Source of the DNA: a virus
Direction: 5' to 3' (one strand)
Virus record (IMG/VR): IMGVR_UViG_3300045988_123629
DNA length: 64,000 bases
Below are positions 20,236 through 63,436 of the stretch, piece by piece (position 1 is the first letter of the stretch; every line of letters starts with the position of its first letter). Under the pieces are notes generated by a model that was not told the DNA's origin, made no database searches, and saw only the letters and a list, made by a program, of their open reading frames with translations. The translations under genes were made by a program, and so were the position numbers.

Positions 20236-20322
20236 AAATGCGACTTATTTATGTATAGATGGAGTCGCCAACCACCTGCGTTCAAAGTCCGCAAGCCTTC
20301 AACGCATTCCCAGGGAGGGATT

Positions 20323-21288: not shown

Positions 21289-21302
21289 GACCTTAACTTT
21301 GT

Positions 21303-42308: not shown

Positions 42309-43319
42309 AGTGTTTTAGCAGAATAGGGTTCATCTTCGCTGTCAAATTTTAGAATCTTGTTAGCAAGATCGCGGTTGACGCGCAAAGGGCCATCGTCAAG
42401 AGGGGTAAATGCGACAGTAATAAGATCGTCGAAATACTCTTCTGCCCAACGACCAGCCTCAGTGAGAGTTTCCGCGAAGATAAAACCGCACGTAAATCTA
42501 TCCATTTTATCAGAGTCGTCCCAATAACGTGCTTCATAATAAACGGGGCATTGTTTCATATTTATTTTCCTTTCTTTAAGAAATTGTGGAGATTAGAAAA
42601 ATCTCGGGATCATCAAGGCTTTCGATGGGGATTTTAAGAAACTTTGCGTAAGCTTCTTTCATCGTGTTATTAAGGCGATAATACTCCTGCGGAGCGATGA
42701 AGATATTGTCAATGCGGACGGCTTCACCTGCGGAAGACTCACCGAGAAGATAGCCGAAGATAGGATTCTCGTCGTTATCATAATCGCTTGCGCGATGCCA
42801 ATAACCTTCTTCGGTAAGTTGTTCGATAGCCTCAGCCATATTATCATAGTTTTCAAGAAGGTTCTTGGGGACTTTATAACCACATACGAGCTTAGAACCA
42901 AAATCAACAGACATATTACTTATCCTCCTTAAAAATAGAATTGATAAAAGTGCTATATTCAGTGGGTCTTACATAATACGCGGTTTTCGCTTCATTATCC
43001 CAAAAAATCATCACAAGTTTATCCGACCCAGAATTCTTTACGGAAATTGAATGAATATGAGTCGTATTAAGGATATGAGTTTGACCTTGATTATCAATAA
43101 GTTTAGCAAGCATTTTTTATCACCTTTAATAGTTTTTCTTTATTTTATATTTATATTATATATTAAAATTTAATAAAAATCAATAAAGAATAAGCGATTG
43201 GACAAAAATGTTAAATGTAATTAAATGTTAAAAAATTGTGTTAAAATTTTAGACATCTATGTGTAGGTATTAGAGATCGCTATGCTTAGGATAGAAGGAA
43301 CATTAGACGGGAAAACCGC

Positions 43320-43480
43320 GTCTTTTTACCAAAAATGGTCATTTCAAATGAAAATGGTCAAAATTTTCTATATGTTGGTCAAAAATTTCTATAAAAATGG
43401 TCAAAAATTTCTATATTTTTGGTTAAAAAATGGTAGATAAATGGTCAAAAATTTCTATATTTTTGGTTGTATTTTTTAGG
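43320..43480. repeat. Iteron array. At least 5 direct copies of about 20 bp (AATGGTCAAAAATTTCTATA-like) upstream of the plus-strand winged-helix gene.
   Basis: Seen by eye. Copies of aaatggtcaaaa(a)tttctata begin at about 43339, 43365, 43385, 43408 and 43440. Confidence 0.6.
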
Positions 43481-43652
43481 TCAGGAACAAATAATAGATT
43501 ATAAATAATTTTTAAATAATAGTGAGAGGAGGTGTGTTATGGAGATAAAGAAAAATTCTCGATAGATTCCCTCTGTTCCGACTATTACACGAGAAAAAGA
43601 TTATTGTGATTTATTATATGCTTGGTTGTAGTGTCATTCAGAGAGAATTACT

Positions 43653-43913
43653 ATGGATAGTGAAGGTCGTCGAATTAATAAGTCATTAGTTAAATGGACG
43701 GCCATAGAAAAAGACTTTGTTAGAACATTGTCAGATGGCACAACTGAAAAAGTTATGTCAAGAAAAACTATTGCGAAATATTTCAAATATTTAGAAGATA
43801 AAGGTTTAATTCAATTACAAGATGATGGTTATTATTATTTGACTATATTAGATGCTACAGAAGCTAATTTAATTGAATATAATACTTTATCTAAATTAAT
43901 AAATGTTTTATAG
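43653..43913 (+). CDS. Small winged-helix DNA-binding protein on the plus strand. It is flanked by iteron arrays. Candidate replication initiator or transcription-switch regulator.
   Basis: 86-aa ORF on the strand opposite to nearly all other genes. Helix-turn-helix-like core KTIAKYFKYLEDKGLI. Confidence 0.45.
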   Translation: MDSEGRRINKSLVKWTAIEKDFVRTLSDGTTEKVMSRKTIAKYFKYLEDKGLIQLQDDGYYYLTILDATEANLIEYNTLSKLINVL

Positions 43914-44154
43914 AAAAATAGTTTGAGTATTTATGTTTATTTGTTTAATAGATATTACGCCAATGGTTTTTAGCCATTTATTGCTACTATTAAATAGATA
44001 AAAGAATTTATTGGTATTGCCACTACCACAACATCTAATAATATTATTGTAGATGATACAATTGATATTTTAAAAAGATTAGGATTATTAGATTATAGAA
44101 TTAAAACTGAAGATAATAAAAGTTATTTAGAGTTTTAGTGGGTAAAGAACGCGT

Positions 44155-44235
44155 TAGAATAAAAATGGTCAAAATTTTCTGACGGAGTGGTCAAAATTTT
44201 CTGATAAATGGTCAAAATTTTCTACATTTTGGTCG
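44155..44235. repeat. Second iteron cluster. Three to four copies of (AA)TGGTCAAAATTTTCT.
   Basis: Copies aaaaatggtcaaaattttctga, gtggtcaaaattttctga and aaatggtcaaaattttcta, then ttttggtcg. Confidence 0.55.
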
Positions 44236-44283
44236 TTTTTTAGAAACCATATAAATAGTAATAGTAATAGTTTTTAAAATAGA

Positions 44284-44336
44284 GGGTATATATTTATAAA
44301 ACTCCGGGCTACGCCCTTCGTTTTATAAATATATAC
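44284..44336. repeat. Perfect 18-bp-stem palindrome (GGTATATATTTATAAAAC...GTTTTATAAATATATACC) with a 17-nt GC-rich loop.
   Basis: Direct reading. Both arms are exactly reverse-complementary. It is followed by a micro-ORF with an AAAGGAG RBS. Confidence 0.6.
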
Positions 44337-44629
44337 CGGGGTATTTTTTGAGAGTAAAAGGAGTAAAATATGAGTTATAGTTATACAGATATAAGAGGCG
44401 GGAAAGGCAATCCTTCAATAATAAGATTTGTAAGAGGAACGCAAGAATAGTTTGATAAGATGGATAAAACAAATATGATAAAACCTGAATTATATATGAG
44501 AGATGATATTCTTTATTTTGTTATTCCAAGTAATACAAAACCAGTAAAAGTAGCATTTGACAATGATAGACCTGAATCAATAGAAGAAAATCCATTCTTA
44601 CAAGAGTCAATTGACTTTTGACTCGGATA

Positions 44630-44790
44630 CTACGTATCCTCGTTGATAAGGGTATTATTGACTTCGGGCATAAATGCCCTCGTTTATAGGGGTATTATTG
44701 ACTTCGGGCATAAATGCCCTCGTTTATAGGGGTATTATTGACTTCGGGCATAAATGCCCTCGTTTATAGGGGTATTATTTGATTTATAAT
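44630..44790. repeat. Tandem direct repeats of about 41 bp, about 3.7 copies. Each contains the palindrome GGGCATAAATGCCC.
   Basis: The unit cgtttataggggtattattgacttcgggcataaatgccct is repeated head to tail. No unique spacers. Confidence 0.65.
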
Positions 44791-44934
44791 AAATAATATA
44801 TTATAATATATATAATAAAAGAAAAAATGAAATGAAAATAATACCCCGTAGGCAGGGAGGATCGTAGATCCGAGTCGCCTGCCGGCGTGGCGAACGCAAT
44901 TTCAAATGAAAAAACGAAAAGGAAAAATGAAATG

Positions 44935-45303
44935 AAATTTACGATTGAAGAATTAAAGAAGAATAATGGAGAAAAGGTAGGCGTCTTCCGCAATTGGAAT
45001 GTAATTGCTACTACTAAGAAAGAGTTCTTTAATAGAGAGAATACGCAAGGCGCATATCTTATTTGGGACGATTGTAATAAGTTGGTTTTTAATGGTAAGG
45101 TTCTTGGTCGAATTAGTGAGCAAGGTAAGGTGGAATATATTGAGAGTGAGTATAGATATGTGAAGCCTGTATTAGAAGAGAAACCGCAGGCTACTAATTC
45201 TGTTGCTCCTGGATCTGAGGATGTGGATCTCAGTAAGAGAACGCTTGCTGATGATATTCTTGATAGTGCATTTAAAACAAAGTTGGAGGAGTTGCTTGTA
45301 TGA
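44935..45303 (+). CDS. Hypothetical protein on the plus strand (about 122 aa).
   Basis: ORF 44887-45303 from the track. The internal start at MKFTIEELKK is preferred. No motif. Confidence 0.35.
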   Translation, partial: KFTIEELKKNNGEKVGVFRNWNVIATTKKEFFNRENTQGAYLIWDDCNKLVFNGKVLGRISEQGKVEYIESEYRYVKPVLEEKPQATNSVAPGSEDVDLSKRTLADDILDSAFKTKLEELLV

Positions 45304-45716
45304 GTGGTATTATTTGGTTTTTAATTGGTGTAGCTGTTGGATATTGCATATGGAACGCTGGAAGAGACCGATAATAGACCTATATTGGTTGATTCGCTTC
45401 TGGATAGTGATTAAGTTTTTAGGTTCAGAATCGGATGACGTAGAGTAAAGTGCGGTTGAGTGGAATAATTGATCGGAAATATAGAAATTATTATGAATTG
45501 CTGAAATTTGCGAAAATGCTGGAATGCTGAAATGCTGAAAATTGCGGTCGTGTGGTACCGATCGGTTTAACCAATCACCAACCACATTTTCCCCGTCTCC
45601 GATCTCCGAACCTAAAAAAAAGAGAGACTTTTTTTAGTCTCTCTTTTTTCATATTAGGCAATTCTTGGTGAAATTGTCGATTCTTAGGATGAAAAATATC
45701 TCACCCGACACATTGT

Positions 45717-46094
45717 TCACTTATTGATGAAAGTATTCAAAAAATCGGCAATTACATCATCATCAGTTCTCTTGACCTTCTTAACCTTTACTTTTTCACT
45801 CTTGGGAAAAAGCACGTCAAGAAGATCGTTAACCCCGGTCATAAGACCGTAAACCTCAGCAAAGATGTTCTCCACATCGGACGCGGTCAACGCGGAATCC
45901 TTGTAGCCATTAAGAGCGGCATACTCGTTAATCCGATCGGCGATTTCCTGCGCGAGCGCGGTCTTCCGATCGGCCTGCTTGGTTTCCTTCTCCACCTGCT
46001 TAACCGCATCGTTCAGAGACTTAGCCATTTCGTCCGCAATAGCCTGAGCGTCCTCACCATTTTTCAGACGAGCAATAATATCATTCATATCCAT
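45717..46094 (-). CDS. Hypothetical protein (125 aa, helical, acidic).
   Basis: AAGAGG RBS followed by ATG (MDMNDIIARL...). The promoter is TTGACA-N17-TATAAT at about 46125-46153. The track ORF extends spuriously upstream. Confidence 0.45.
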   Translation of the reverse strand: MDMNDIIARLKNGEDAQAIADEMAKSLNDAVKQVEKETKQADRKTALAQEIADRINEYAALNGYKDSALTASDVENIFAEVYGLMTGVNDLLDVLFPKSEKVKVKKVKRTDDDVIADFLNTFINK

Positions 46095-46610
46095 ATGAAT
46101 ACCTCTTTTCTTATTTTCTATATATATTATATACTTTTTTTTTAAAAATGTCAAGATTTTTTTAAATGAAAACATACGTGTGAAACAATGTAAGGGCGAA
46201 GCAATTTTTAATTAATCATAAAGGCATATGATCCTACGCGGGCTTAAAAAAGTCTTTTTTTATTATTATAACATATTTTTTATAAAAAGTCAATTTTCGG
46301 GATTTTTTTGGGCCATATGGAGAGGTGCTAGAAGTATGAGAAATTTTGCATATGGGTATACCGATCGGAAACTCGGCCCGGCACGTTCCACCGCGGGCCG
46401 GCCAAATAAACTGAGCATTCCGGGATTTTAGTCTGAGTCTATTTTAGACGCTTTTTTCGCGCAAAATTTGCTAAACCTATAATTATTTCGAAATTCCGCC
46501 CGGAGCGTCAGTGATCGGGCGGTCCATTATACCACATTTTCCGATCGGTGTCAATAGGCAAAATACACAAAAAAAATCAGCAGGTTTTAGCCAACCTGCT
46601 GATTGAATAT

Positions 46611-47027
46611 TTATGCAAGAAATGCGCTTACAATTTCATCGAAAACCGTGGGGTTAATGTCCACGTTAAAAAAGCGGTCATTCTTGCGGAACGCTTTGGG
46701 GTATCGTCTAATCAGTTCCGCACGCAACGCGCTTTCCGCACCCTCGGCGGGATAGTCCCCGCAAGAACGGATTCGATGAACTTCAACGCGCGTGATAGAA
46801 TACTTTTTCGAGTATTCGCCGATTTCATCACGCAAGCGCCCTACAACGTCTTTTGCGGACGTGCCTACCTTGTTAAATTCAAGTTTGTTGTTGTTGTAAA
46901 ACTTGAAAAAGTAGACCGCTTGAACGTCTTTCAGATTCTCGCCACAATTAGGCATAAACTCCATTGAAACGGGTGGTCTACCGTCCTTAAATCGGCGTAG
47001 CTTAATAGTAATTTCTTCCATCGGCAC
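46611..47027 (-). CDS. Hypothetical protein (138 aa).
   Basis: AGAGAGGA RBS. A 28-nt hairpin element (47051-47078) lies in the 5' leader. This element is duplicated at 50161-50188. Confidence 0.4.
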   Translation of the reverse strand: MPMEEITIKLRRFKDGRPPVSMEFMPNCGENLKDVQAVYFFKFYNNNKLEFNKVGTSAKDVVGRLRDEIGEYSKKYSITRVEVHRIRSCGDYPAEGAESALRAELIRRYPKAFRKNDRFFNVDINPTVFDEIVSAFLA

Positions 47028-47144
47028 AAAATCCTCTCTATTGATTGAGGTTTACCATCGTTCTCTCAACCATTATTTTTTACCCTTTTTTGCTTGTTTT
47101 TGGGTGAAAAACCGCATTTTTCAGCGGTTTTTCACCCTTTTTCG

Positions 47145-47552
47145 TCAGTTTTTGGGCTTTCGCTTTTGAATCAGGGTCAATTCATAGTCATTTTCGCCCA
47201 CATGGAACGCAATCATGCGCTCGACATTCGTAATTTCTACATTTTCGCACGCATTTTCGCTGTTTTCACGCAAAAAAGTCGCAAGTTCAGCGATAATCGA
47301 GCGTTTTGTGGGGTTTTCCTTGCGCTGTCGCTTCTCAAACTTATAAGCGGTCGGCGCTTTGCGTGTTCCGGTCTTAGAATACTTGTTAGCTTCTTTCAGC
47401 TTTTCCGCGGACAGGTCAAAGTCCTTGGCGATTCCATGGTCAATGTCATCATCGTCCATGAGAATTTCTTTTGCTTCCTCGGCAGTACAATCCAACTTTT
47501 TCATCAGATTATCAATCTTTGCCTGAAAGTCCTTTTCACTCATTTTAGGCAT
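47145..47552 (-). CDS. Hypothetical protein (135 aa), charged.
   Basis: ORF from the track. It is followed by a strong terminator hairpin GGGTGAAAAACCGC...GCGGTTTTTCACCC at about 47100-47140. Confidence 0.4.
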   Translation of the reverse strand: MPKMSEKDFQAKIDNLMKKLDCTAEEAKEILMDDDDIDHGIAKDFDLSAEKLKEANKYSKTGTRKAPTAYKFEKRQRKENPTKRSIIAELATFLRENSENACENVEITNVERMIAFHVGENDYELTLIQKRKPKN

Positions 47553-47652
47553 TTCTTTTGCCCCCTTTCAAGTATGATTATAACACCGCCGTCAGCAAAT
47601 GTCAAGAGAAATTTTTGGGAGCGCCTAATTTTTTTTAGGCGCTCCCCCTGAA

Positions 47653-48030
47653 TCAGTGAGCGAGACGGAAGTAGGACTTGCGCTTGTCCACAATCTTCTC
47701 GACGCCGTTCGCTTCAATCATCTGACGCAGAAGAGCGGAAACGCGCTGGTTGGTGAGGTCGCCCAGACCGTCCACGTTCTTGATGAGGTCGGTCACGGTG
47801 TACAGCTTGTCAGGATTCGCGGACAGCTCAGCGAAGATAATGTCCTTGTAGCCGTCGTTGGCAATCTGATTCGCGGTCGGCTTCTTATCTCCCGAGTTCT
47901 TACGAGCCAACAGGTCAATCTCGTGATTGATAAACTCAACCATAGCGGGGTCAGCCTGAACCTCGCTCATTTTGAGCAGAGCCTCGAAACGGTCGCGCTT
48001 GGTGAGCTTCTTAACAGTAGAAGTAGACAT
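47653..48030 (-). CDS. Winged-helix-like protein. Paralogue of 50276-50650 (about 75 percent identical).
   Basis: AAAGGAA RBS followed by ATG (MSTSTVKKLTKRDRFEALLKMSEVQ...). The promoter is TTGACA-N17-TATACT at about 48066-48100. Confidence 0.5.
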   Translation of the reverse strand: MSTSTVKKLTKRDRFEALLKMSEVQADPAMVEFINHEIDLLARKNSGDKKPTANQIANDGYKDIIFAELSANPDKLYTVTDLIKNVDGLGDLTNQRVSALLRQMIEANGVEKIVDKRKSYFRLAH

Positions 48031-48758
48031 AGTATCAATTCCTTTCTTTGGCGGTAGGTCGCTACCCTTTTGATATATTGAGTATACCACATTTTAGAGT
48101 GCTTGTCAAGAGGTTTCACAAACTTTTCACACGAATTACTACCCCGACCTGACGGATAATTTATTGTTTGTTGATTCAATCTATTTGTCAGCGGAAAACC
48201 GCGTCAAGGATAGTTGGTTCAATCAAACTCACTTTCGCGTTCAACGTTTGGCTTTACAACGTGGTGTATTATGTTTTCTTCCTGTACTTTCTCAAGGTCG
48301 CGCGCCCTCGGATTTCTTGGGCTACTCCCTCTTGACATTTTCTATTGTAGCACACTCGCTGGGATTTGTCAAGAGGTTTTCAAGAAAAAACTCATGAATT
48401 TTTTCTTTTATCCCGTGCGTTCCGCTCCGAAGAGACCTTAACGTAATAGGTGAACGGTCTATTGCTACTTCCAACCGTAGCCCCACACCGACCTGTGGCT
48501 CAGGGGTTCCCCTCTTGACATTATCTATTATAACAGATTGCCCACGGATTACAATTGACAAAATAACCAAATTACGGGAAAAAATTTTCTTTACTTTTGT
48601 GCAACTTTTCTCTTGACAAAATTGGCGGGGCGTGGTATAATGGTGAATTCGGCCCGCTTTGGGCGTTGGCGGGCCGGCCATTTTATCATAAAAGTTCTTG
48701 TTTGTCAATAGACAAAATAGACAAAAAAAACTACCCATTTTTGGGCAGTTTTTTTATT

Positions 48759-49004
48759 TTAGTCCAGCAGGTTAATCTCACCGGGAATTTTGAAAGAATC
48801 AGCGTCCAGTGTGGAATTGTAGTCCTCGGTAAAAAGGTCAATCATTCCACATTCCATGATGTAATTCTGCACCGCCCGCTGAACATTTCTCCAAAGGTCA
48901 ATCTTTCGGCTTTCCTCGCGGGCTTTTCTGGCTTCCTGTATCTGGATAATGAGTTCGTTCAGTTCCTCGTCGGTCATGTAATTCAAATCTAAATCCATTT
49001 TCAA
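48759..49004 (-). CDS. Hypothetical protein (81 aa).
   Basis: ORF from the track. A bidirectional terminator lies downstream at about 48722-48760. Confidence 0.35.
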   Translation of the reverse strand: MKMDLDLNYMTDEELNELIIQIQEARKAREESRKIDLWRNVQRAVQNYIMECGMIDLFTEDYNSTLDADSFKIPGEINLLD

Positions 49005-49288
49005 AACTCCCCTTTAATTGCTTCTTTCCATGCGTCCCAGCCGAATTTTTCCTCGCGGTCTAACTTCTTGCCAATGTCTTTTGCGGTCAGTAGGTCAAGC
49101 TCGTCCGCAATCTCATCTTCAAAGTTTACCCAAGAGTCGTAGGTCTGAATAATGAAAACTTCATCGGCTTCAAAGACGCCACCGCACTCGGCGCAGATAA
49201 TATAGTCATGGTCGATTAAAATGCCCATGTGAGGGTCATTGTCATCAGGGACTACAAAAAGGACTTGTTTAGCGTTCATGTGAAACAC
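49001..49288 (-). CDS. Hypothetical protein (95 aa).
   Basis: GAAAGAGG RBS. The promoter has rc TATAAT at 49309-49314 and rc TTGACA at 49332-49337, with an exact 17-nt spacer. Confidence 0.45.
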   Translation of the reverse strand: MFHMNAKQVLFVVPDDNDPHMGILIDHDYIICAECGGVFEADEVFIIQTYDSWVNFEDEIADELDLLTAKDIGKKLDREEKFGWDAWKEAIKGEF

Positions 49289-49304
49289 CTCTTTCGTTTG
49301 ATGT

Positions 49305-49340
49305 ATTGATTATACCATAGGGAATAGGACTTGTCAAGCC
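49305..49340 (-). promoter_or_regulatory. Representative early promoter of the GC-block class. TTGACA, a 17-nt spacer, then the extended -10 TGGTATAAT. The -35 box is embedded in the terminator hairpin of the upstream gene.
   Basis: Minus-strand reading GGGCTTGACAAGTCCTATTCCCTATGGTATAATCAATACATCAAACGAAAGAGGTG, then ATG. Hairpin GGGCTTGACAAG...CCC. More than 25 instances of this class lie between 45.7 and 63.0 kb (for example 51959-51987, 54087-54115, 56640-56680, 58160-58200, 61295-61335). Confidence 0.7.
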
Positions 49341-49356
49341 CTATTCCCTATTTTTT

Positions 49357-50133
49357 TTAGCTCATGTTTACAACGGGATTTTCCTTAATGTTTCGCATGA
49401 GCGCGCGCTGAAACTCGGTAGGCTTGGGGCGTTCCGCCGTGGGAGTTTTGAAAAGGGACTTTTCCATGGTCTTATGCTGTCGGACGCAATAGCGCAGAAT
49501 CTCAACTTCAATGAGAACATCTTCAAGTCCCGTGTGGGATTCATCAAAGCTGTCCTCACCGCTGATAAAGCGATAAAGAATTTCTGCGGTAAAGCGGAGC
49601 TGTCCGTTCTTGGTCTTGTAGCCGTTCTTTTCGCAATAGTCGCGGTAAGTGGGCATTTTGCCGATAACCTGTCGCGCCATTTTCAACGTGTCCCAAATTT
49701 CGAGGTCGTAGGGAAAGAAATAGCGATACTTGCTTTTCGTGTCCCATCTTTGCGCGTTGTTGCAGGCGTTAAGGTCGAACCGCATATTATGAGCACAGAC
49801 AAAAGAGCAGTTGTAGCGCTCGACACATTCGCAGAACGCAAGACGAATTTCGTAAAGGTCAGCCATAATGCGCGAACCGTTCTTAATGTCCTCAATGTAG
49901 CGGGGAATCTTGTCGGCGTAGTATGCGGACTGCATGAGGTCGCGTTCGTAGCAGAAAATGTCGCGATTCACAAAGGAATGAGTTTCATAAACATTTCCCT
50001 TGGAATCAATGACCGCCCAGCCGAAGTCATAGGGAAGCACATTTGACATATCCAGCTTATCGCCGTCCTGAATGGTGTTTGCGGTTTCCGTGTCCAGCAT
50101 AATGCCGTAGTTTTTGCGCCTATCAATACCCAT
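49357..50133 (-). CDS. DnaQ-like 3'-5' exonuclease (DEDDh family).
   Basis: Exo I MLDTETAN, Exo II CAHNMRFDLNAC and Exo III HTGLEDV(L) are in order. The RBS is AGGAGACG. The duplicated 28-nt hairpin element lies in the leader at 50161-50188. Confidence 0.7.
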   Translation of the reverse strand: MGIDRRKNYGIMLDTETANTIQDGDKLDMSNVLPYDFGWAVIDSKGNVYETHSFVNRDIFCYERDLMQSAYYADKIPRYIEDIKNGSRIMADLYEIRLAFCECVERYNCSFVCAHNMRFDLNACNNAQRWDTKSKYRYFFPYDLEIWDTLKMARQVIGKMPTYRDYCEKNGYKTKNGQLRFTAEILYRFISGEDSFDESHTGLEDVLIEVEILRYCVRQHKTMEKSLFKTPTAERPKPTEFQRALMRNIKENPVVNMS

Positions 50134-50275
50134 CTTATCGTCTCCTATTGGAAAAGTAGATTGAGGTTTACCATCGTTCTCTCAACCTCTGATAATAGTA
50201 TAGCACTTTGCTATTGGTTTGTCAACAGTTTTTTTTGTAGGGCAGGGGATTTTTTTATCCCCTGCCCTTTTCCCT

Positions 50276-50650
50276 TTACGCGAGGGAGAAGTAGGACTTG
50301 CGCTTGTCAACCGTCTTGACAACGGTGTTGGCCTCAATCATCTGACGCAGAAGAGCGGAAACGCGCTGATTGGAGTAGTCCGCAAGCTCGGGAACGCCCT
50401 TGATGAGGTCGGTCACGGTATACAGCTTGTCAGGGTTTGCGGTCATCTCGTCCAGAATGACCTGCTTCACAGTGTCATTCTCCATCTGCTTGGCCGTGGG
50501 CTTCTTGTCGCCCGCGTTCTTCTTGGCGAGCAGTTCAATCTCATGCTCGATGAACGCCACCATGTCAGGATTTGCCTGAACCTCGCTCATTTTGAGCAGA
50601 GCCTCGAAACGGTCGCGCTTGGTGAGCTTCTTAACAGTAGAAGTAGACAT
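50276..50650 (-). CDS. Winged-helix-like protein. Paralogue of 47653-48030.
   Basis: 124-aa ORF. Nearly identical N-terminus MSTSTVKKLTKRDRFEALLKMSEVQ and C-terminus NQRVSALLRQMIEAN..VK.VDKRKSYF. Confidence 0.5.
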   Translation of the reverse strand: MSTSTVKKLTKRDRFEALLKMSEVQANPDMVAFIEHEIELLAKKNAGDKKPTAKQMENDTVKQVILDEMTANPDKLYTVTDLIKGVPELADYSNQRVSALLRQMIEANTVVKTVDKRKSYFSLA

Positions 50651-51139
50651 AGTATCAATTCCTTTCTGGTTTTTAAGACTGTCCTTGTCTTTGATGTAGT
50701 TATTATACCATAAGCGGAGCAGGTTGTCAATAGTTTTTGCAAATTTTTTTTAGGGGCGGTCGCGAGGTTTATTACTATACATCTTGTTTATACCTACCTT
50801 TATCTATACTCATAAACCAATTCATTTTACTAAACCAAATTAGTCTTTAAGGCGGTGGGCGAGCATTAGAAGTCATCTTGTTTTTACCTCTCTCATTTGA
50901 TGTATTCATTATACCCTACGTAGAACGGTTTGTCAAGGGGTTTTTCAAACTTTTTTTGAAAGTTTGTTCGGCACGCCACGCTTGGAACATTCCGTCGGAT
51001 TTTGGTATAATGAATGGTCAAGGGAACTGCCTTTCCGAAGGTCTTACTCTTTCCTCCTGACATTATGTAGTATAGCAGATTGGTAATGATTTGTCTATTG
51101 GTAAAATAGCTAAATAACGGGAAAAAATAAAATTGAAAT

Positions 51140-51300
51140 TTGTGCGAAATTTCTCTTGACAAAAATGCTGGCAGGGTGTATAATGGTAAATTCCGGCCGT
51201 AGCGCGCGGAAACGGCCGGCCCATTATATCACATTCAAGGAATTTTGTCAATGGTCAAAGTAAACAAAAAAATCTCCCCATTTTTGGGGAGATTTTCTTT
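51140..51300. promoter_or_regulatory. Intergenic module. A plus-strand promoter (TTGACA-N17-TATAAT, 51147-51181) and a minus-strand promoter (TTGACA-N17-TATAAT, about 51228-51262) face each other across a pure-GC hairpin (51193-51219). The module ends in a bidirectional terminator (51270-51298).
   Basis: Direct reading. Homologous modules occur at 48600-48780, 53440-53600, 55230-55390, 57210-57520 and 59430-59600. Variants occur at 46290-46560 and 62900-63130. Confidence 0.6.
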
Positions 51301-51722
51301 TAGCCAATCACACTGACTTCGGTTCTGACAGGCGTTACCATCTTGTCGCGCGAGAACTCGCGAACCTGACCTGTTTCAAGATTCACCGCGTAGCAATACT
51401 GCGAACCTCTCGACCGGACAAACGGCGTGTTGTTGTTGCTGTCAATTTTGAGATACATTCCCATACCGCTACCGTTAGAGCGCAGAGTGGTGAACGTGCC
51501 ACCGCTGAGAATGTTGATAATTTGGAGCTGACCCTTAGTGCCAAAATTTACTTTCATTTTTATTTCTCCTCTCTTAAAGCAGATGTTCCTTGACCCATTT
51601 TGCGGTCACGGTCGCGCGTTCTTTGGTGATAACAGTTTCATAGATGAAAAGGTCGTCATCAATCTTTTCAACTACTTTTCCGATGATTCCAACATCAACC
51701 CAAAAATAAGGCATCATTTTTA

Positions 51723-51930
51723 TCACCCCTTTGAACCGACCGAGAAGATGGACTGCAAAAGCACGAGAATAATCCAAATTGCGAGTGCCAGCTTCCACGA
51801 GAACACGATGACGAAAGTGCCGATTGCGGTAATACCGAGGGCGGGAAGAAGCCAACAGAGAAGCCAAACCAGACCAGAGGTAGCAAGGAACGAAAATGCG
51901 AGAGACAGCAGAATCAAAAGAACAAACATT
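51723..51930 (-). CDS. Small membrane protein (68 aa, two TM helices).
   Basis: AAAGGGGAAAA RBS followed by ATG (MFVLLILLSLAF...). The promoter has rc TATAAT at 51959-51964 and rc TTGACA at 51982-51987. Confidence 0.45.
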
Positions 51931-51983
51931 TTATTTTCCCCTTTCATTTGATACATTTATTATACCATTGGAGTAGGGTTTTG

Positions 51984-52484
51984 TCAAGCCCTTTTCTCCA
52001 AAAGTTCCGAAAGTTTTTCGATAATGTTTACTGCGGTTGGGTCAATGGTTTCACCCAAGTGCCAACCATTCCGAACCTTTTCATTATCGTCAACCAAGAT
52101 GGACACGTCATAGCGGTCGCGCACGCTGTCGGCCTTAGTCGCGCCATATTGGACGCCGTGGAAGTGGTCATAGTGGAAGCCCTGTTCTTCAAGCCACGCG
52201 CGCTTTGCTTCACGCACGAGGTTTTTGTATTCCTCGCTCGAATCTTTGGAAAGCCAAGTGATGATGTTGATTTCCCAGCCCTCGGCGCGGAGAAGTTCGC
52301 AAACCTCATTCAATTCAGCCATATCACACATGGGAACGGCAGTCCGATAGGGCTTAGGATTTTCCGAACGGAGAAGTGCAAGCCAATCCTTGACGCCGTA
52401 GAGGTCAGCAATAGTGCCGTCCATGTCAAAGTTGATGGAACGTCGAGTGGCCACAACGTGGGACTTGATGTAAGTGATTTTCAT
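51984..52484 (-). CDS. HAD-superfamily hydrolase, 5'(3')-deoxyribonucleotidase-like.
   Basis: Motif I FDMDGTIADL (DxDGT). Downstream ITWLSKD and ILVDDN motifs. 166 aa. Confidence 0.6.
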   Translation of the reverse strand: MKITYIKSHVVATRRSINFDMDGTIADLYGVKDWLALLRSENPKPYRTAVPMCDMAELNEVCELLRAEGWEINIITWLSKDSSEEYKNLVREAKRAWLEEQGFHYDHFHGVQYGATKADSVRDRYDVSILVDDNEKVRNGWHLGETIDPTAVNIIEKLSELLEKRA

Positions 52485-53603
52485 AGGTATTACCCCTTTC
52501 CTTTACTGTATCTGTATTATACCATACATCTGCGCGGTTGTCAAGAGAAATTTTAGCAATTTCCCGCTTTATTTATCCATTCTTTCCATTCATCTTTGGC
52601 AAACTTTTTATATTCTTCTTGCCAAATACCACCTGCAATGGCTTCTTTTACTGCATCATCAATAGAAAGATATTGGTTGGGAAAAACAAAGTCATCACAA
52701 AAGAACCGAGTTCGACCAAAGAATTTGCGGTTAGGGCGGATAACTTCATCAACAGAGATATAGATTAGCCCATATGATTCATCGTTGTATACCTTAACCT
52801 CAAAGGTTCTTCCCTCATATTCATAAGTTTTCGGCTTACTCATAGCGTTTGCCCTCCTTTACTATGCTTGTATTATACCACTATTGGATTTGCTTGTCAA
52901 GTATTTTTTTCAAAATTTTCGCGGTCTTTCTCAATACACGAAAGATAAGAAATTAAGCAAAATCAGCACAGGAATAGCGTAGACGATATTGAAAGAGTCC
53001 CACCCGAGACTTTCACAGGAATAGGCAAAAATAAAGCCAAAAACGAGGCCGAAAATGCCGATTAAAATAATCATTCTAAATCCTCTATATGACCGTAGTG
53101 TTCGTTGATATGCCATTCAAGATAGGTATTAGTCGCAATCTGAATTTCTCTATCTAACCAGTCGTAAAAGTCCTCGGGGTCGCGGGCCATGCGTTCGTCA
53201 ATAATATCAGCAAGAGAAACGCGATGGGCGATAAACTCTGAAATATCAAGAGAATCCATAGAAGAAAGAAGTTCTTCTACACATTCTCCGCGAGTAGAGA
53301 ACTTTTCAGTAGAAAAATCGTGAGTGTAATACATTGTTTGTATCCCCTTTCTTTACTGTATCCATAGTATAGCAGATTATTACATTCTTGTCTATTGGTA
53401 AAATACCCAAATTCGGGAAAATAATTAGTTGGACTTTTGGCTAAATTTCCTATTGATAAATTGCTGAGATGGTGGTATAATGGAAATTCCGGCCGTGGCA
53501 TGCGCAAACGGCCGGCCATTTTATCACACTATTGGATTTTTGTCAATAGGCAAAATAAATAAAATTTTGAGACGAGATTTGGTTATCTCGTCTCAAAATA
53601 TTT

Positions 53604-54056
53604 TTAACGTTCGGACACAATGCTGAGGTAGCGGACAATCATGTCCATTTCGCAACCCATGTCCTGCTGGTCGCAAACCGCATAACCCACAAGGTCGCCG
53701 TCCGCACAAATCGGGTAAACGCCATAAGTGTTATTGAAAACAAACGGCTTTCTTTTAAAATCCCACTGGGTCGAAACATAAGGCGGAAAGTTTTCCATAC
53801 CCCGCAGTTTCACGATAGTATCATAGATTGCGATGGGACGCAAACCGGAATTTGATGCCATTGTAATAGCGGTTCGCAGAGCTTCTTCGGTCAAAGAGCC
53901 AAGCACCGAATACCTCTGAAAACAAACGCAGTTGTCTTCTCCAAGGAAGATTTCAAGCGGGTCTCCCTCGCGAATCTTCAAAGTTCGGCGAATCTCTTTC
54001 GGAATGACCACACGTCCAAGGTCATCAATTCTGCGGATAATACCAGTAGCTTTCAT
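53604..54056 (-). CDS. AbrB/SpoVT-family (swapped-hairpin) DNA-binding protein with an extended C-terminal domain.
   Basis: The N-terminus MKATGIIRRIDDLGRVVIPKEIRRTLKIREGDPLEIF closely matches the AbrB N-domain consensus. The promoter has rc TATACT at 54087-54092 and rc TTGACA at 54110-54115. Confidence 0.65.
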   Translation of the reverse strand: MKATGIIRRIDDLGRVVIPKEIRRTLKIREGDPLEIFLGEDNCVCFQRYSVLGSLTEEALRTAITMASNSGLRPIAIYDTIVKLRGMENFPPYVSTQWDFKRKPFVFNNTYGVYPICADGDLVGYAVCDQQDMGCEMDMIVRYLSIVSER

Positions 54057-54120
54057 TTTAATTTTCCCCTTTCACTTGATACGTTAAGTATAGCAGAACA
54101 AAAGGCTTTTGTCAAGCCCT

Positions 54121-54603
54121 TTATTCAAGATTTTTGCTTTCCGCGACAAAATATTTTGCTTCGTATTGATTGGCAATAGCCTTGACTTTTGCGCTTTCCT
54201 TTTGAGTTGCGCAGTAAAAATTGAAAAGCGTATGTTTATCGCTCAATTCAATGTAAGAGTGTGGAACATCATGCAAATCAAAGTCAATGGTATTAGTGTA
54301 TTTTGTCGGGACAGTTAGCTCGACTTTCCATAACCGGTCTTTGCGGGCTTTCTCTTCAATCCACTTGACAAAGTAAACGCCCACAAAATTACAAACAGCA
54401 GTAATAGCCATTTTTAACCAGATAGGCATACCGTCCGCGGAAGTCAGCACAATCACATAGGAATAAAATCCATATGTGATGGCATTGATAAGAGAAGCAC
54501 TAAACTTCCCGCCGTTGACAGTCAAGATGCTTTTGATAGTTGACAGAATCACATTCACCGCCGTGCAAAGCGCGAACAGAAGAATTGTATTCATTATTAT
54601 CAC
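54121..54603 (-). CDS. Membrane protein (about 4 TM helices).
   Basis: ORF from the track. Hydrophobic helices throughout the N-terminal 110 aa. Confidence 0.4.
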   Translation of the reverse strand: MIIMNTILLFALCTAVNVILSTIKSILTVNGGKFSASLINAITYGFYSYVIVLTSADGMPIWLKMAITAVCNFVGVYFVKWIEEKARKDRLWKVELTVPTKYTNTIDFDLHDVPHSYIELSDKHTLFNFYCATQKESAKVKAIANQYEAKYFVAESKNLE

Positions 54604-57600
54604 CCTTTCCTTTTTCTATTATAATAATATCATATTATAATAGAAATGTCAATAGAGAGTTTTTAATTTACTCTTTTAATTTTTCTAATAGGTCATCAGC
54701 ACATTCATAGCTGATACTTCTGCGGTCGCACTCGTTGGACAAAGGACAACAAGCGCAGTCATTAAAGGTTTCCGTCCAAACGCGCAACCAGTCAATCAAA
54801 CGCAAAGTGTTAACTTCCTCATACATTGTTATCACTCTCCTTTACTCGGACAAAAAAGACCTTGTTATAGATTTTATTTGCTTTAAGGTCAATCCAAAAA
54901 TACACGTTTCCGCATACTCGATAGATTTTACAAGTCTCTCCGCTAACCTTTTTAACTTCCTCAAACTTCTCTTGCGTGGTGGGGTGGAAAACCGTCAGTT
55001 TGAGAAATATGCAATAGAAAGCCAAAGGAACAAAGCCGATAATCAGAGCAATCCATGCGAGAACGTCAGTTAAGGTATTTTCCCATTCGCACCATTCATC
55101 GGTGATTGTAGCGAACGCAATACCCACGCAAAACGCGAGAATCAACCAATACCATGCCCCCATTATTTTATTCCCCCTTTATTTGTTGTATACATCTTAC
55201 CACATTATAGGATTTTTGTCTATTGGCATTTTACACAAAAATTCGTGCGAAAATTTGTTGAACTTACCTCTTGACAAAAAACTCGGCGCGCCACAATCGT
55301 CCGCGCGCCGACAATTTTATCACATTCAAGGAACTTTGTCAATAGTCAAAGTAAACAAAAAAAATCACCCAATTTGGGTGATTTTTCATTTAGTTTCCTA
55401 CGGCTTCGAGGTCGACGAGAATGGGAACGAGCTTGTCTTCAAGAAGCGCGACACGCTCAATCATTTCATTTGCTGCTGTTCCGCCCGACGGGTATCTCTT
55501 CTGAATGCCGTATCGAGCCATTCTGCACACCGTTTCAACAACCTCGCTCAGTTTCTCATTTTTCATTTTTCTTATCTCCATTCAATTTATTTTTTGGAAA
55601 GGGTGGCGGTTGTTTCAGGCACAACCGCCAAAGCCATAGGAAAGGGGGAGAAAAAACACGAACAAAAGTTCGGTTTTGTCAAGGGATAATCAGTTCCGCG
55701 TCATAGACAGGCCGAACCATGCAGGGCGCGCCAAAGCAGTCGAGATTGTAAGTGTCTAAATTGAGAGCGTTCCATTCTTCTGCACCGGTATCTTCATCAA
55801 CCACAGTCGCGATTTTGATGTAATAGACGTTTCCAGAAGCAGGGTCTTGAAAAATCATACCCTCGGGGAGGTCTTCAAATGCAACCATTTTGTTGCTATG
55901 CTTAACAGTAATTTTCATTTCGTTCACCCTTTATAATAGTATTTGTAAGCCCATTCAATGATTTCATGGCTTGTGGTAGTCCATTCCTCTTTGGGACTAT
56001 CGAACTTTTCCGCATACTTTTTGATGTAGTTATTATACTCCATGCGCGCGGTGTCGTATGCTCCAATAGCCACAATTAAAGCGTGTTTCGCTTCTTCGGC
56101 GTCGGAGACTGCTTTCTTGCGGTCGGGGCAGTCAGGATAAAGGTTAATCACCCCTACGCGCGTAATGGCTTGCCTTGTCTTTTCATAAAGGCGGTCGCGC
56201 TCTTCCCAAACCTTATAAAGCATTTCGTCTGTGTGATTCTCATAGGGATTGAATTTCTTTTCTTTTTTCTTACCGAACATTTTTCTTTTTCTCCTTTTCC
56301 TGTTTATTCCACATTCTATCGAAGAACGCATTTGCGAGGACACGCTTGTAAAGGTTGTCAGGCATGGGGCGCTCACCGTGCTTGTTTCTCCATATCGCGG
56401 TGATTTTATCAATATCCGCGATATAGGCGGTAATGAGTGTGCCATCGGAAGCGCTACGAACGAGAAGAACGCCGGTTGTAGTGATAGTGTAGAGAATATC
56501 GTTCTCAACGCTGTCGATATATGGTTCGCCGATTCCTACATTATCGTAGATGAAGAGCAGACGGTCAATGCGGTCTTGCGTGGCGTGTTTTGACATTTTG
56601 ATAAGCATTTGTTTTACCTCTTTCTTTTCCTCTTGGATTGATTGTATTATACCATATGGGGAGGGGCTTGTCAAGCCCCTTTAATATAATTGTTCCCCAT
56701 CGTGGTAGCGCTCATATTCCGCTTCAAGGAAGTCGAGAATAGTTTCAAAGTCGTCTGCATCTGCGGGGTCTGCAAAGACCTTTTCAAGGACTTCGTTAGT
56801 GTGTCTGTTGTAAACTCGAATCATATCCATTTTACTTACCTCTTTCTTGATTGTATATGTATTATATCATGCGAAAGGGCTTTTGTCAAGCCCTTTTTAT
56901 CAGAAATGATAATTTCTGATGATGGCGTCGAACTTGGGAGCATATACGTTTTCCCACTGTTCTTCAAGAGTCTGGTCATTCGTGCGATATAATTCCCACG
57001 AGACTGCGCCATAAGCGTTATGCTTGAAAAACTCGGCGTCGCAGGGCATCTGCTCGGCATAGAGAAGCTGGGTCTTGATAAAAGAGTGAATGTTGTAGTT
57101 AGTCATTTTATTTACCTCATCTTTCCGTTCCCCTTGGAACAATTATAGTATAGCAAATGCTTAGGCATTTGTCTATTGACGGATCACACAAAATTGGGAA
57201 AAATAATTTGTGCAAATTTTCGCAACTTTTTGCTTGACAAATTGCTGGCCCTGTGATATAATGGAAATTCCGGGCGCGTGGGCCGTGCGCGCCCGGCCGA
57301 ACAACCATTGTTAAAATTTTAACAAAAATGAAATAGAAAGGGCGCGGTAATTATCGGCTACCGCGCAAACCATAGTATGAAAAATTTGTTTACTACTTCA
57401 AGAGGCTTACCATTTCCTCTTGACATGATTATAATACCACAACGGGGCGAGTTTGTCAATAGTTTTTTGAAAAAAAATTTCAGGCGAGATAATTAAATCT
57501 CGCCTGAAAATTATACGTCCCACATGGCTTCCGCAATCCAGAAGTATTCATAGCGGAGTTTGGACTGAATCGCAAACAAGGCGTTCGCAAGTTCTCCGCC

Positions 57601-57709
57601 GTCTTTGTAGTCTTCCGCGTCTGAAAATTTCTGACTTTCTTTCGCAATTCTTTGAGCCAACTTTTCAAGGGCGTCTGCCTGTTCTCTCAAAGCCTGCGGG
57701 ATAGGTTTT

Positions 57710-58066
57710 TCATTCATTATTTGTTTCCCCCTTTGCAAAGTTAGAGGTTAGCTCTAACGTATGTCCGCATTCATCGCAATACCAATAGTAATAAACTGTT
57801 CCATACCGGCCATGAGAAGCATTTACAAATTTCATTTCATTTCCGCAGATGGAGCAATAGCCGTCATTCCATGCTTTTTTGTCGGCATTGTGGTCAGCGA
57901 CTACTGCGCCCGTCATGCCATAGCCAAGAGCGCACGAAATGAGAAGACCAACCAACAGTCTGACTACTGGGTGAGACTTTTCCATGTTGCACCAACAGAC
58001 AAGGCAGACAAATAGCGCAAGGACTGCGCTAAAAATTCCGCCAACAATTAAAAATTCCGTTCCCAT
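57710..58066 (-). CDS. Membrane protein with a C-terminal zinc ribbon.
   Basis: ORF from the track. Two TM helices, then CSICGNEMKF...YCDECGH. Confidence 0.4.
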   Translation of the reverse strand: MGTEFLIVGGIFSAVLALFVCLVCWCNMEKSHPVVRLLVGLLISCALGYGMTGAVVADHNADKKAWNDGYCSICGNEMKFVNASHGRYGTVYYYWYCDECGHTLELTSNFAKGETNNE

Positions 58067-61000
58067 TTTTATTTCCCCTTTTCACATTTAATGCATTGAG
58101 CGTGTGTTCCGCACTTTCCATCGCAATAAGGACATTCCATTATTTTATTCCCCTTTCCTTTGATACATTAAGTATAGCAGAAAAAGGGCTTTTTGTCAAG
58201 CCCTTTTTCTTATTTTTTTTAATTTTCTTTTCTAATGGAATAGTAGGTTCGGCTTCCCTTTTTGGTGTAGGTCAACTTTTTGTCAATCCAACAAAGATGA
58301 CCGCAATACCATGCAACGGTGGCGCAAGGATATTCTTTGCCTGTCTCACGGTAAAGAATAAACTGGATTTCCGTAGGGCACAGGGGCTTTTCCGCCTTTG
58401 AGAGAACGTCGAGCATCATGTTTTTCATCATGGTGTTGCGGATTTCCTGTTTCAGTTTCCGCGCTTCCTGAGCTTCCTCGAATTTCTGGCAAGCCCGTTC
58501 CGCCTGAAACACGTCCATTCCGGTGAAAGTGCCATCATCAAGGCATTTTCTCAAAAGACTATAAACTTCAAAGTTCATCATGTTAGCATTTCCCTTTCCT
58601 TTATTGTGCTTTTATTATAGCATCTGCTTTTGAATTTGTCAAGAAGTTTTTTGGAAAAAAGAGGGAAAAATTTTCCCTCTTTATTTATCCCCAATAGATC
58701 GAAAGAACGTTGTCAATGTAGCTGGCTTTATAGCCATAATTCTGCATAATATCTTTGCAAGCCTGCCTGACGCCCTTGTCATTTAATGAAGCAAGAGAAC
58801 ACTCGTAAAGTGTTTCTCCCGTTCCTGCCACACGCTCAATTTCCGGCATGATGTGGTCTCCGATAAACGCACGCGCGAGGGCATTATTTTTAGCTTGGAT
58901 TTCTTTGCGGACTTCTTCGGCTTTGCGCGTCATTTCATAAGCATATTTAATTTCCATGGTGTTTCTCCCTTTCCTTTGATGCTTTTATTATAGCATAGAG
59001 GGCTTGTTTTGTCAAGCCCTCTATTTAATTTTTTAGCAATAGGCCAGATTCCCGCGCGCCCAGCCATATACGCTGATTTGATTGCACGCCTTGCCGATTT
59101 CAAGTGCCTGCTTCTTGGTCTGCACTCTCTTGGACTTGTCAACATAATAGATGCCGTTCGCAAGCCACACACCGCAGTTTCCGCCGAAGTCCTTGACCGC
59201 ATTGATAGCTTCGCGGGCGGTCTTACACTCAACGCCGTTGGTAGCGACCTGCCAGCCGGACTTGTAGTTGACTTTCTTGCCATATTTGAGAGTCATGCCG
59301 TCGTTTTCAGCGAGTTTGAGAATAGAACGAATGTTAATCATGTTGTAAATCCCTTTCCGGTTTGGTAGGTTTTCCTTCCCTTACTGTGATTATAGTATAG
59401 CACCGATTCGGGATTCTGTCTATTGACACTTTGCACAAAAATTTGCCCCAAAAATTTGTTGAATCTGCCTATTGACAAAAACTCGGCGCGCCAGGTCCGT
59501 TCGCGCGCCGGCCGATTATACCACAAAATTTTGAAATTGTCAATAGGTAAAATGCACAAAAAAATCTTCCCATTTTTGGGGAGATTTTCATTTTTATTTT
59601 TTAGCCATCAACATAAACGATAAGAACATCATCTTTGGCTTTCAAACCGCTGACAGGCAATCCCAGCACCCATTCTTCGCTTACGCCCAAAACCTCACCA
59701 TTCAGAGTCATGCGACCTTTGCGGTCTTTGAGGTAGCGCCCGCAAGTGTTTTCATTTATCACTTCGATGCCGTTCCCCTCATAGAACATCAGCGCGCCCT
59801 TTACCAGACCAATCACATTTTTAACCATGCCCAAAGTCATTTTGTCAACCTCTTTCGTTTTTAATGTCGTTCCCCTTGGAACAATTATAGTATAACATGA
59901 GCTATAATAAAAGTCAATAGGCAAAATGTATAAAAACTCGGCAGGATTTTGTATGTCCTGCCGAGTTTTTTTAGTTCAAACTCTCGATGACTTCGCCGGT
60001 CAGTGCGTCGATAACATCGACCGAAACAACGTTGTCCGCGTCGATGAACTTCTTTGCAAGGATACAAGCGTTTTCCCGCCCGAACACCGGAATTTCATGG
60101 CGATAATAGAATACATCGCTTGCCTTGTAGTTGTAGTAGTTGATAGAAACATTAAATAACATTTGGTTTATCCCCTTTCCTTTTATATTCTTATTATACC
60201 ATAGATTCGGGATTTGTCAATAGTTTTTTTGAAAAAAGTTTGAAAAAAAATAAGAGCGTTTCCGCCCTTATTTCTCATAAACGATAATGTTGTTGCCTAA
60301 CTTTTCAACGCGAGAATCTTCACAAAAGTGATAGGTGAAGTCCGCTGAAAGATGTTTGAGAAATTCGCGTCTCCATTCGCGGGACTTCGGCTCTAATTCA
60401 AAGAGAATGTAAAGCGTTTCCTCTAACCGGTCGAGAAAGTTTTCAGTGTCCGCGATGTTGAATTTGCCCGCGAGCTTCGGAGCAGAAGAAGTGCCAATAA
60501 TAAGAATGTTGTAAGTAGTCATGGTTTTTATCCCCTTTCTTATTGTATCTACATTATAACATTTGCTTCTGGATTTGTCAAGAGTTTTTATAAAAAAATA
60601 AGGGCTTTTTTCAGCCCTTATTCTTAGCACTTGACCCACGTGTTGACTAACTTCCGCTCAATGGTCGCGGGCTTCGTCAGAGTGTTTGCATACGCCTGCG
60701 CTTCTTTCTTAGTCTTAAAGTAAGTCGGCAGGTAATAGCCAAGGCGAGCGCTGTAATTATCTTCGGTGTAAACTCTGTATTTCATCTTTTGTTTTCCCCT
60801 TTCTTTACTGTAATTATAGTATAGCACTTACTTCTGGATTTGTCAAGGGCTTTTATAAAAAAATTAAGGGCTAAAAAGCCCTTAATTTAACACCGCGACG
60901 ACCTCGCCGTTCATGCAGGCGTGGACATCGAACTCCACGCCCTTATAGGTGTCGGAGTAAAGATACGTCCAGTCATCGCCGAGGACATAGGCCAGGGGCT

Positions 61001-62516: not shown

Positions 62517-62879
62517 TTAATAAGCCTCTCTCCATACCTTAATGATTGTATCATCTTCCACAGTATCAGTGTCATTGTCGTTAATCCACAAGAGCAAGAA
62601 GTCGTTGTCATCAATGTTGAGTGCTTCCACGTTCCACAGGTTGTCCTGCTCATCAATGAGCGTCAGGGTATCGTCTTCGCGTGCGTAGACCTCTGCGCCG
62701 ACGAAACGAATGCTTCCGCGCTCCGTACCTGCACCGCACCAATTCTCAATGACCGAGAGGTCGTAGGACTGGGGTGCTTCCTCACAGGCTTCCGCCGTTG
62801 TGTGGTCGTGGAATCCGAAGAAAGACACGGAAAGAATGATGGCAATGGCCATGGTGATGATTTTGGAAACGTTCTTCAT
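62517..62879 (-). CDS. Secreted hypothetical protein (signal peptide).
   Basis: N-terminus MKNVSKIITMAIAIILSVSFFGFHDHTTAEA. A hydrophobic signal with an AEA cleavage-type site. Confidence 0.4.
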   Translation of the reverse strand: MKNVSKIITMAIAIILSVSFFGFHDHTTAEACEEAPQSYDLSVIENWCGAGTERGSIRFVGAEVYAREDDTLTLIDEQDNLWNVEALNIDDNDFLLLWINDNDTDTVEDDTIIKVWREAY

Positions 62880-63436
62880 TTTGATTTACCTCTTTCTTTT
62901 TGATGATACAAGTATAGCACATGACTACTGGATTGTCAATAGTCATTTTGCACAAATGTGATGGCGTAGTTTCGGGTATTTTGACTATTGTGCATTATGA
63001 CGAAGTTTCGGCGAGAAATTTGTGCAAACTGCTGATTTTTATAAAATTCGGCTCGCCACTACCGCCAGCGAGCCGAGCAACGTTTACCGGGGTGTTTGTG
63101 CGGGATGGCATCGTGCGTTCCGCAAAAGAGCGAGAGTAAGGCTGGTATACTCTCAGAGAATAAACGAGTTAGAACCTTATGGATGGGGGTGTATTTCGGG
63201 AAAAAATTTTTTTTGATTTGTGTTTTTTCTTTTGCGTGGACAAAACACAGTCTAAATCAATTTTCAATTTCAAAATACGATTTAAAACAACAAATCAATT
63301 TTCAATTTCAAATTACGAAGAATAATTTTCGATTTTAAATCACGACTTCTTTTTTCTACCTCTTTTAGGTTTTTCACCCCACATAAGAGTGTATAATCCA
63401 GAAGTAGCAGAATAAGTAGCTTTCTGCTGATACTTT

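Follow-up and report, generated by a model that had tools for sequence, protein, structure and literature searches.

A candidate iteron-type replication origin and the gene of its predicted initiator in a TAG-recoding gut phage

In P1 (incC-repA-incA) and mini-F (incB-repE-incC), the initiator gene is flanked by iterons on either side, those upstream overlapping its promoter region. In the origin of bacteriophage λ (oriλ), a palindrome is found beyond the AT-rich region. The binding of an initiator to iterons opens an adjacent AT-rich region, as was described for RctB (PMC6090056) and for λ O (PMC12663957). Here we analyze a locus of comparable layout in a stretch of 64,000 nucleotides (nt) of the record IMGVR_UViG_3300045988_123629. 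We call this whole stretch the window, and all coordinates count from its first letter. The window belongs to a gut phage of roughly 195 kb that has near-identical public contigs of 195-197 kb. The locus includes a gene of a 207-amino-acid (207-aa) protein flanked by two arrays of direct repeats, with an AT-rich block and a palindrome further downstream (Table 1). The tandem winged-helix fold of this protein resembles that of the R6K π protein and of Vibrio cholerae RctB, which are among the closest known systems. We hold, with moderate confidence, that the locus comprises an iteron-type origin of replication and the gene of its initiator. Iteron binding and initiation are predictions, indirectly supported by the fact that the protein and the repeats change together across the family.

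Most knowledge of large TAG-recoding gut phages comes from metagenomes, and for some large TAG-recoded clades the GC skew was unclear and origins could not be defined (Borges et al., bioRxiv 10.1101/2021.08.26.457843). An origin candidate defined by sequence, with its cognate protein, provides a concrete site that can be tested.

The gene content of the locus depends on the genetic code. Many long minus-strand genes of the window carry from one to eight in-frame TAG codons, and almost all genes end with TAA. A cluster of about 21 tRNA genes (9341-21371) includes a tRNA with the CTA anticodon (10004-10093, minus strand). Because of the in-frame TAGs in long genes and the presence of this tRNA, we read TAG as a sense codon; public gene calls on the near-identical contigs render it as Gln. 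A preliminary description of the locus had reported a single plus-strand gene of 86 aa (43653-43913). This gene turned out to be an internal fragment of the 207-aa open reading frame (ORF), split because TAG recoding had been missed. The complete ORF has a ribosome-binding site, GGAGG, about 8 nt 5' of its start and agrees with the public gene calls. Three plus-strand genes (207, 83 and 123 aa) are present in the 64 kb instead of one. The rest of the window is minus-strand, and the reported break in gene orientation is confirmed as a plus-strand island in a minus-strand genome. The apparent scarcity of proteins in this region was partly an artefact of the standard-code reading: with TAG recoded, about half of 43184-44932 is coding.

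The 207-aa protein consists of two winged-helix domains (WH1-WH2) that together span its whole length. Its family includes 231 clusters among 1.84 billion representatives, nearly all of about 200 aa. Profile searches in Pfam, NCBIfam and PDB sequences detected nothing beyond a generic winged helix of the MarR/Crp type, located in the N-terminal half, and the profile search of PDB with the 207-aa protein returned MarR/ZitR-type proteins only. The best Foldseek TM-scores belong to co-crystal entries of the type built on RepE54 (PMC10373652). A comparison with plasmid Rep modules, which had been suggested earlier, gave nothing: no Rep family matched the protein at E <= 1, and a protein search of 72,556 plasmid records found no homologue. 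A megablast search with the locus against 50,697 phage records also gave no match.

Comparisons with Pfam, NCBIfam and PHROGs at the family level were performed with 80 family members. Neither Rep_3 nor another curated initiator family occurs among their top Pfam and NCBIfam families. In PHROGs, 77 of the 80 members match phrog_3396, which is labelled ScpB. The matches ranked after it are mostly replication initiators, namely phrog_8102 (14 members), the O-like phrog_678 (9) and the DnaD-like phrog_186 (6); further initiator-type PHROGs found among the members are 270, 428, 391 (O-like) and 1032. The protein shares with ScpB the tandem winged-helix organization and the length of about 200 aa. 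Unlike the case of ScpB, the 64 kb show neither an SMC nor a ScpA partner, structural matches span only one domain, and Pfam SMC_ScpB is not among the matches. We know of no binding of ScpB to iterons. The ScpB label of phrog_3396 is probably a fold-level mis-annotation. The family is absent from Pfam, and phage annotation would gain from renaming this PHROG as a candidate initiator.

The iteron core TGGTCAAAAWTTTCT is 15 bp long and asymmetric. It is present in seven exact copies, all oriented as the 207-aa gene, and has no other match in the 64 kb at up to two mismatches. The mean count in shuffled sequences is 1.15, and none of 100 shuffles reached seven. The spacing of 21-22 bp corresponds to about two helical turns; one interval of 44 bp between exact cores contains a degenerate unit. 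The upstream array had been described as five iterons. The array stands, and the count is corrected to four full and three degenerate units; its end is about 55 nt from the start codon. The three to four copies reported downstream are confirmed as three full units and a degenerate one, and they begin 4 nt past the TAA stop of the gene. Neither the gene itself nor its orthologous genes contain iterons. The downstream array would be the initiator-binding part of the origin, and the upstream one an auto-regulatory operator and/or a second initiator-binding array. We rejected the possibility that the two arrays arose by simple duplication: they share only the last iteron and a degenerate terminal unit, and each array has a conserved flank of its own.

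The AT-rich block between the downstream iterons and the palindrome contains a 12-mer, AAATAGTAATAG, that is invariant in the alignment of five genomes. The duplex stability of this block (calculated for 40-mers) is -39 to -40 kcal/mol, about two standard deviations weaker than the window mean of -51 (standard deviation 5.2), and the block falls outside the least stable sites of the window. It is a candidate DNA-unwinding element.

The palindrome with an 18-bp stem, reported at 44284-44336, is real and is located at 44285-44337. Its inner hairpin is GGGC/GCCC. It is the longest perfect hairpin of the window, and none of 200 shuffles folds equally well as DNA (z = -5.8). Among the relatives described below, it is found in L001, L002, L003 and L005 with either compensatory changes or full replacement, 11 of 22 pairs being altered on both sides. 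Hairpins in the equivalent place were seen at eight loci (z from -3.2 to -7.8), and no shuffle matches them; in the more distant loci L129, L130 and L133 they were detected by folding, and in L136 by direct reading of the sequence. We considered whether the palindrome is an ordinary intrinsic terminator and rejected this explanation. No conserved T-run follows it among the aligned close relatives, and it is unlike the 25 generic terminator-like hairpins of the window, which have stems of 12-15 bp, short loops and in several cases A/T runs. The palindrome may act at the RNA level. Rfam contains no family for the palindrome or for the 40-bp units and the GC-rich leader described below, all matches being far under gathering scores.

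Orthologues of the 207-aa protein are encoded in five IMG/VR contigs (L001-L005; 66-86% protein identity). In each of these contigs, four or five iterons lie ahead of the gene, at -188 to -78 relative to its start codon; three or four more begin 3-20 nt past the stop. Over 30 iteron instances, variation is confined almost entirely to the flanks, core positions 0-14 being nearly constant. A scan with a two-iteron pattern found tandem iteron pairs in just four IMG/VR contigs, at one locus in each. When viral contigs were scanned with the 15-nt core alone, only isolated single matches appeared, save for one short contig with three. The distant homologues in L129, L130, L131 and L133 (31-38% identity) are accompanied by their own, different repeats, which lie upstream of the gene and abut or overlap its stop codon. 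In L129, L130 and L133 a long palindrome lies another 50-150 nt downstream. L136 (42% identity) has the same iteron upstream, and downstream a hairpin followed by inverted iterons. We do not claim a half-site shared by the whole family, since a crude regular expression applied to the distant loci was out of register.

Two minor observations concern these repeats and those of the distant relatives. At 43209-43250 (plus strand) of the window there are three ATGTTAAA-type repeats (AAATGTTAAAT, AAATGTTAAAAAAT and GTGTTAAAATTTT) that are like the iterons around the distant family members of L129 and L131. They may result from chance in AT-rich DNA, be left over from a swapped module or serve as sites of another protein. 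L131 also has a non-coding region of about 750 bp (4224-4967) downstream of the module with at least eight copies of the palindromic GTTAAAnnTTTAAC (for example, CGTTAAATTTTTAACAA), which resembles a densely packed set of operators for another, dimeric DNA-binding protein.

If the locus is an origin, its components suggest the following order of events. One protein monomer would bind each iteron, and its two winged-helix domains would read the TGGTC and TTTCT halves; the asymmetric core, with these halves one helical turn apart, fits a monomer with two different winged-helix domains. As the iteron units are in phase, the bound proteins would share one face of the DNA and would bend it. The downstream array would then melt the neighbouring AT-rich block, and the palindrome would extrude as a hairpin where the helicase and primase of the host or the phage could enter. 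Because the array begins immediately past the stop codon, every transcript of the gene would cross it, and newly made protein would be freed beside it, a situation that favours cis action. The upstream array covers the promoter region of the gene and probably auto-represses it; it may also pair with the downstream array, as incC does with incA in P1 and incB with incC in mini-F. Binding, bending, unwinding and helicase entry are steps that we infer for this locus.

Similarities with oriλ are a phage-encoded winged-helix initiator, a short direct-repeat array, DNA bending and the opening of an adjacent AT-rich region (PMC12663957), which we predict here by analogy. The order of elements, from iterons through an AT-rich block to a palindrome, is also alike, DnaA boxes are absent in both cases, and transcription traverses the origin. 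O-like PHROGs are weakly matched by some family members; the 207-aa protein itself has no significant sequence similarity to λ O. In contrast to our locus, where the arrays flank the gene and none is inside it, oriλ sits within the O gene. The λ iterons are internally dyad-symmetric and bind O dimers, whereas the cores described here are asymmetric. The C-terminal domain of O binds P, and the gene of this loader follows; here the protein has two winged helices only, and no loader gene is adjacent. P1 and mini-F are alike in that arrays flank the initiator gene, the initiator is a tandem winged-helix monomer, and the spacing is about two helical turns. Unlike in these systems, there is no Pfam Rep_3 domain, DnaA box, plasmid homologue or partition operon here, the element that carries the locus is the 195-kb phage, and the gene is gated by amber suppression. 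As for DnaA boxes, 43184-44932 contains no match to TTATCCACA at up to one mismatch, and the counts over the whole window are at the chance level.

Among about 100 genes of the window, the gene of the 207-aa protein is the most TAG-dense, with 2.9 per 100 codons, and its surroundings are nearly devoid of TAG. TAG accounts for six of its eight Gln-type codons, as compared with 2.5-8% in the flanking regions (P = 7e-7 for at least six of eight). With six in-frame TAGs, the first at codon 9, the full-length protein depends on amber suppression. Without an active amber-suppressor tRNA there would be no full-length initiator, and the change of code would time either origin firing or a switch of replication mode. 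TAG positions of the gene are mostly kept among the relatives, with exchange between TAG and Gln codons at two alignment columns; this conservation argues that the gating was selected rather than accidental. We therefore put forward, tentatively and as the less probable outcome, that the code change serves as a timer of DNA replication, so that the origin fires or changes its mode only after the amber-suppressor tRNA acts. If true, this would bind replication timing to the code switch, which was earlier discussed mainly for lysis and structural genes. Recoding of replication genes differs between recoded phage clades (Borges et al., 10.1101/2021.08.26.457843).

At 90 nt, the putative amber-suppressor tRNA (anticodon CTA) resembles class II tRNAs in its long variable arm, which forms a hairpin. 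Such an arm is unusual in a Gln-inserting tRNA, although TAG swaps with Gln codons in the alignment of initiator genes. ARAGORN labels this tRNA as tRNA-Pyl. The second highest TAG density was found in a 177-aa ORF at 53013-53546 (minus strand) with five in-frame TAGs and TAG-poor surroundings. This ORF overlaps shorter standard-code ORFs, and its gene model is therefore uncertain.

Several results lend no support to the origin. The cumulative GC skew, proposed earlier as a check, reaches a local minimum at about 42 kb and a local maximum at about 46 kb. The three plus-strand genes and the amino-acid composition account for this inflection, which is thus no evidence either for or against an origin. 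The skew at third codon positions (GC3) of minus-strand genes is alike to the left and to the right of the locus (-0.06 vs -0.03) and carries no origin signature. Finally, the tandem array of 40-bp units to the right of the locus does not support an origin either: its copy number varies from one to four between close strains, and the array is therefore peripheral to the module. An origin is still the best-supported part of the earlier proposal of a replication origin or regulatory hub; its gene model and the inclusion of the 40-bp array as a conserved part of the module are abandoned.

The absence of a skew signature is in line with a rival explanation, in which the protein is an auto-regulated transcription factor or a local chromatin-like switch and not an initiator. 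Such a protein would coat both arrays and control its own small operon, by repression or activation, and might loop the DNA and silence outward promoters; silencing that begins once amber suppression permits synthesis would amount to an early-to-late switch. Searches of Pfam, NCBIfam and PDB sequences match the N-terminal domain to regulators of the MarR, Crp, ArsR and Lrs14 types, the upstream array is just ahead of the ribosome-binding site of the gene, the module lies between two near-identical divergent promoters, and the TAG density implies late synthesis, as a timing switch would require. We consider this explanation rather unlikely and prefer the origin with its initiator.

A variant of the origin idea is a low-copy replicon of the plasmid style, in which the downstream array is a copy-control ("handcuffing") locus and the phage persists either in a carrier state or as a plasmid prophage outside the chromosome. 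The placement of iterons on both sides of the initiator gene, as in P1 and mini-F, and the tandem winged-helix fold like that of π, RepE and RctB are in line with this variant, and negative copy control is of no obvious use to a lytic phage. Nevertheless, we regard it as improbable. No homologue is encoded in the plasmid records, DnaA boxes are lacking, and no partition, integrase or repressor genes were recognized in the 64 kb. A gene with six TAGs would demand continuous amber suppression in the carrier state, and the genome was recovered solely as phage-like contigs. The suggestion of rolling-circle replication or of a plasmid lifestyle in the preliminary description thus finds no evidence, in view of the plasmid search and of the lack of partition genes nearby.

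Direct-repeat arrays flanking a promoter are found in type II and III plasmid centromeres. A centromere-like partition site or a DNA-packaging recognition site, with the protein being a centromere-binding one (TubR, ParR, AspA-like) or a late small-terminase-like recognition factor, is very improbable: despite this centromere-type layout of direct repeats, a weak match to AspA in the PDB sequence search (E = 0.015), the ScpB label of the family in PHROGs, weak matches of 3 of the 80 members to a small-terminase PHROG and the late translation implied by TAG density, no partner genes were recognized nearby, namely no partition ATPase or terminase near the locus and no motor NTPase (ParA, ParM, TubZ) among the neighbours in the window or in L126-L136.

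Table 1. Features of the candidate origin module and of its surroundings in the window
Feature	Position	Strand	Remarks
Leftward promoter-like site	43155-43183	-	TTGATT-17-TATAAT; left edge of the module; found by promoter scan
Upstream iteron array	43334-43485	+	7 units in 21-22-bp phase; full at 43355, 43376, 43398, 43442; degenerate at 43334, 43420, 43464
Gene of the 207-aa tandem winged-helix protein, candidate initiator	43539-44162	+	6 in-frame TAG, the first at codon 9
Downstream iteron array	44166-44248	+	full at 44166, 44188, 44209; degenerate at 44230
AT-rich block	44249-44284	.	between iterons and palindrome; 12-mer AAATAGTAATAG at 44253-44264
Composite palindrome	44285-44337	.	18-bp perfect AT-rich outer stem, internal loop, inner 4-bp stem, 3-nt loop
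83-aa gene	44370-44621	+	1 TAG; in L001 and L002, not in L003-L005
40-bp tandem array	44620-44779	+	4 units, the first diverged; Tandem Repeats Finder score 270, 98% matches
Rightward promoter-like site	44779-44807	+	TTGATT-17-TATAAT; right edge of the module; putative promoter of the 123-aa gene
123-aa gene	44932-45303	+	
DnaQ-like exonuclease	49357-50133		right arm
Nucleotidase	51984-52484		right arm
AbrB/MazE-like protein	53604-54056		right arm

The module is bracketed by a pair of near-identical, outward-facing sigma-70-like promoters, which are parts of a 49-nt inverted repeat I1 (43135-43183 vs 44779-44827). The leftward site is among the four least stable 40-mers of the window. Both promoters resemble a family of AT-rich promoter-like motifs, TATAAAAAAATATTATATAATA, of which at least 12 copies occur in intergenic gaps (0.02 expected by chance). 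Eleven of them are on the minus strand, for example at 12045, 14836, 20755, 21413, 29093, 30760, 32906, 36369, 37456 and 46125, and these sites are the least stable DNA of the window. A terminator-like hairpin, GACGGGAAAACCGCGTC followed by TTTTT, is located directly 5' of the upstream iteron array (43306-43330, plus strand) and is kept in L001 and L002. It may stop a short plus-strand transcript or shield the upstream array from incoming transcription.

The 83-aa gene is probably co-transcribed with the initiator gene. The 83-aa and 123-aa proteins have no family match, and a helicase-loader gene (P or DnaC-like) was not found next to the initiator gene. The leader of the 123-aa gene includes two 21-nt direct repeats (AAAAGAAAAAATGAAATGAAA and AAAAGGAAAAATGAAATGAAA) around a structured GC-rich insert of about 80 nt (about 60% GC) at 44817-44937. 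The insert is part of the 5' leader, and the second repeat holds the start codon of the gene and its ribosome-binding site. In L001 the corresponding position is taken by another GC-rich insert, which suggests either an insertion hot spot or a variable leader RNA.

The 40-bp array was initially described as nearly four tandem units of 41 bp at 44630-44790; the array itself is confirmed, with four units and a period of 40 bp. In each unit, TCGTTTATAGGGGTATTATT is preceded by a small GC hairpin, which reads GGATACtacGTATCC in unit 1 and GGGCAtaaaTGCCC in units 2-4; the array was flagged as terminator-like. The last unit always extends into the -35 element of the rightward promoter. L002 has one copy, L001 and L127 have two each, and in L128 the assembly has a gap here. 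At this position L003 carries another hairpin, and this form of array is absent from more distant relatives. The array looks like a strain-variable tandem duplication of a terminator-like hairpin and of the segment just 5' of the promoter. We rejected the 40-bp units as a second set of iterons in the core of the module, given one to four copies across near-identical strains. Tandem promoters were rejected as well, since the spacing of 19-21 nt between the -35-like and -10-like elements is too long and the hairpin of L003 differs.

The right arm of the window (45310-64000) is compositionally distinct, with GC content at third codon positions of 0.47-0.51 vs 0.17-0.38 to the left and overall GC content of about 0.43 vs 0.35 elsewhere. 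It contains many small minus-strand genes and few TAGs, and may be an early region with codon usage fitted to host tRNAs.

Tandem repeats were also observed far from the locus. A 46-bp unit is present in 2.9 copies among the tRNA genes (19619-19744) and includes a small hairpin, GGATTTTTAAGAAGAATCC. Another repeat, at 1754-1908, has 2.9 copies of a 54-bp unit and lies within an 861-aa gene (1450-4035).

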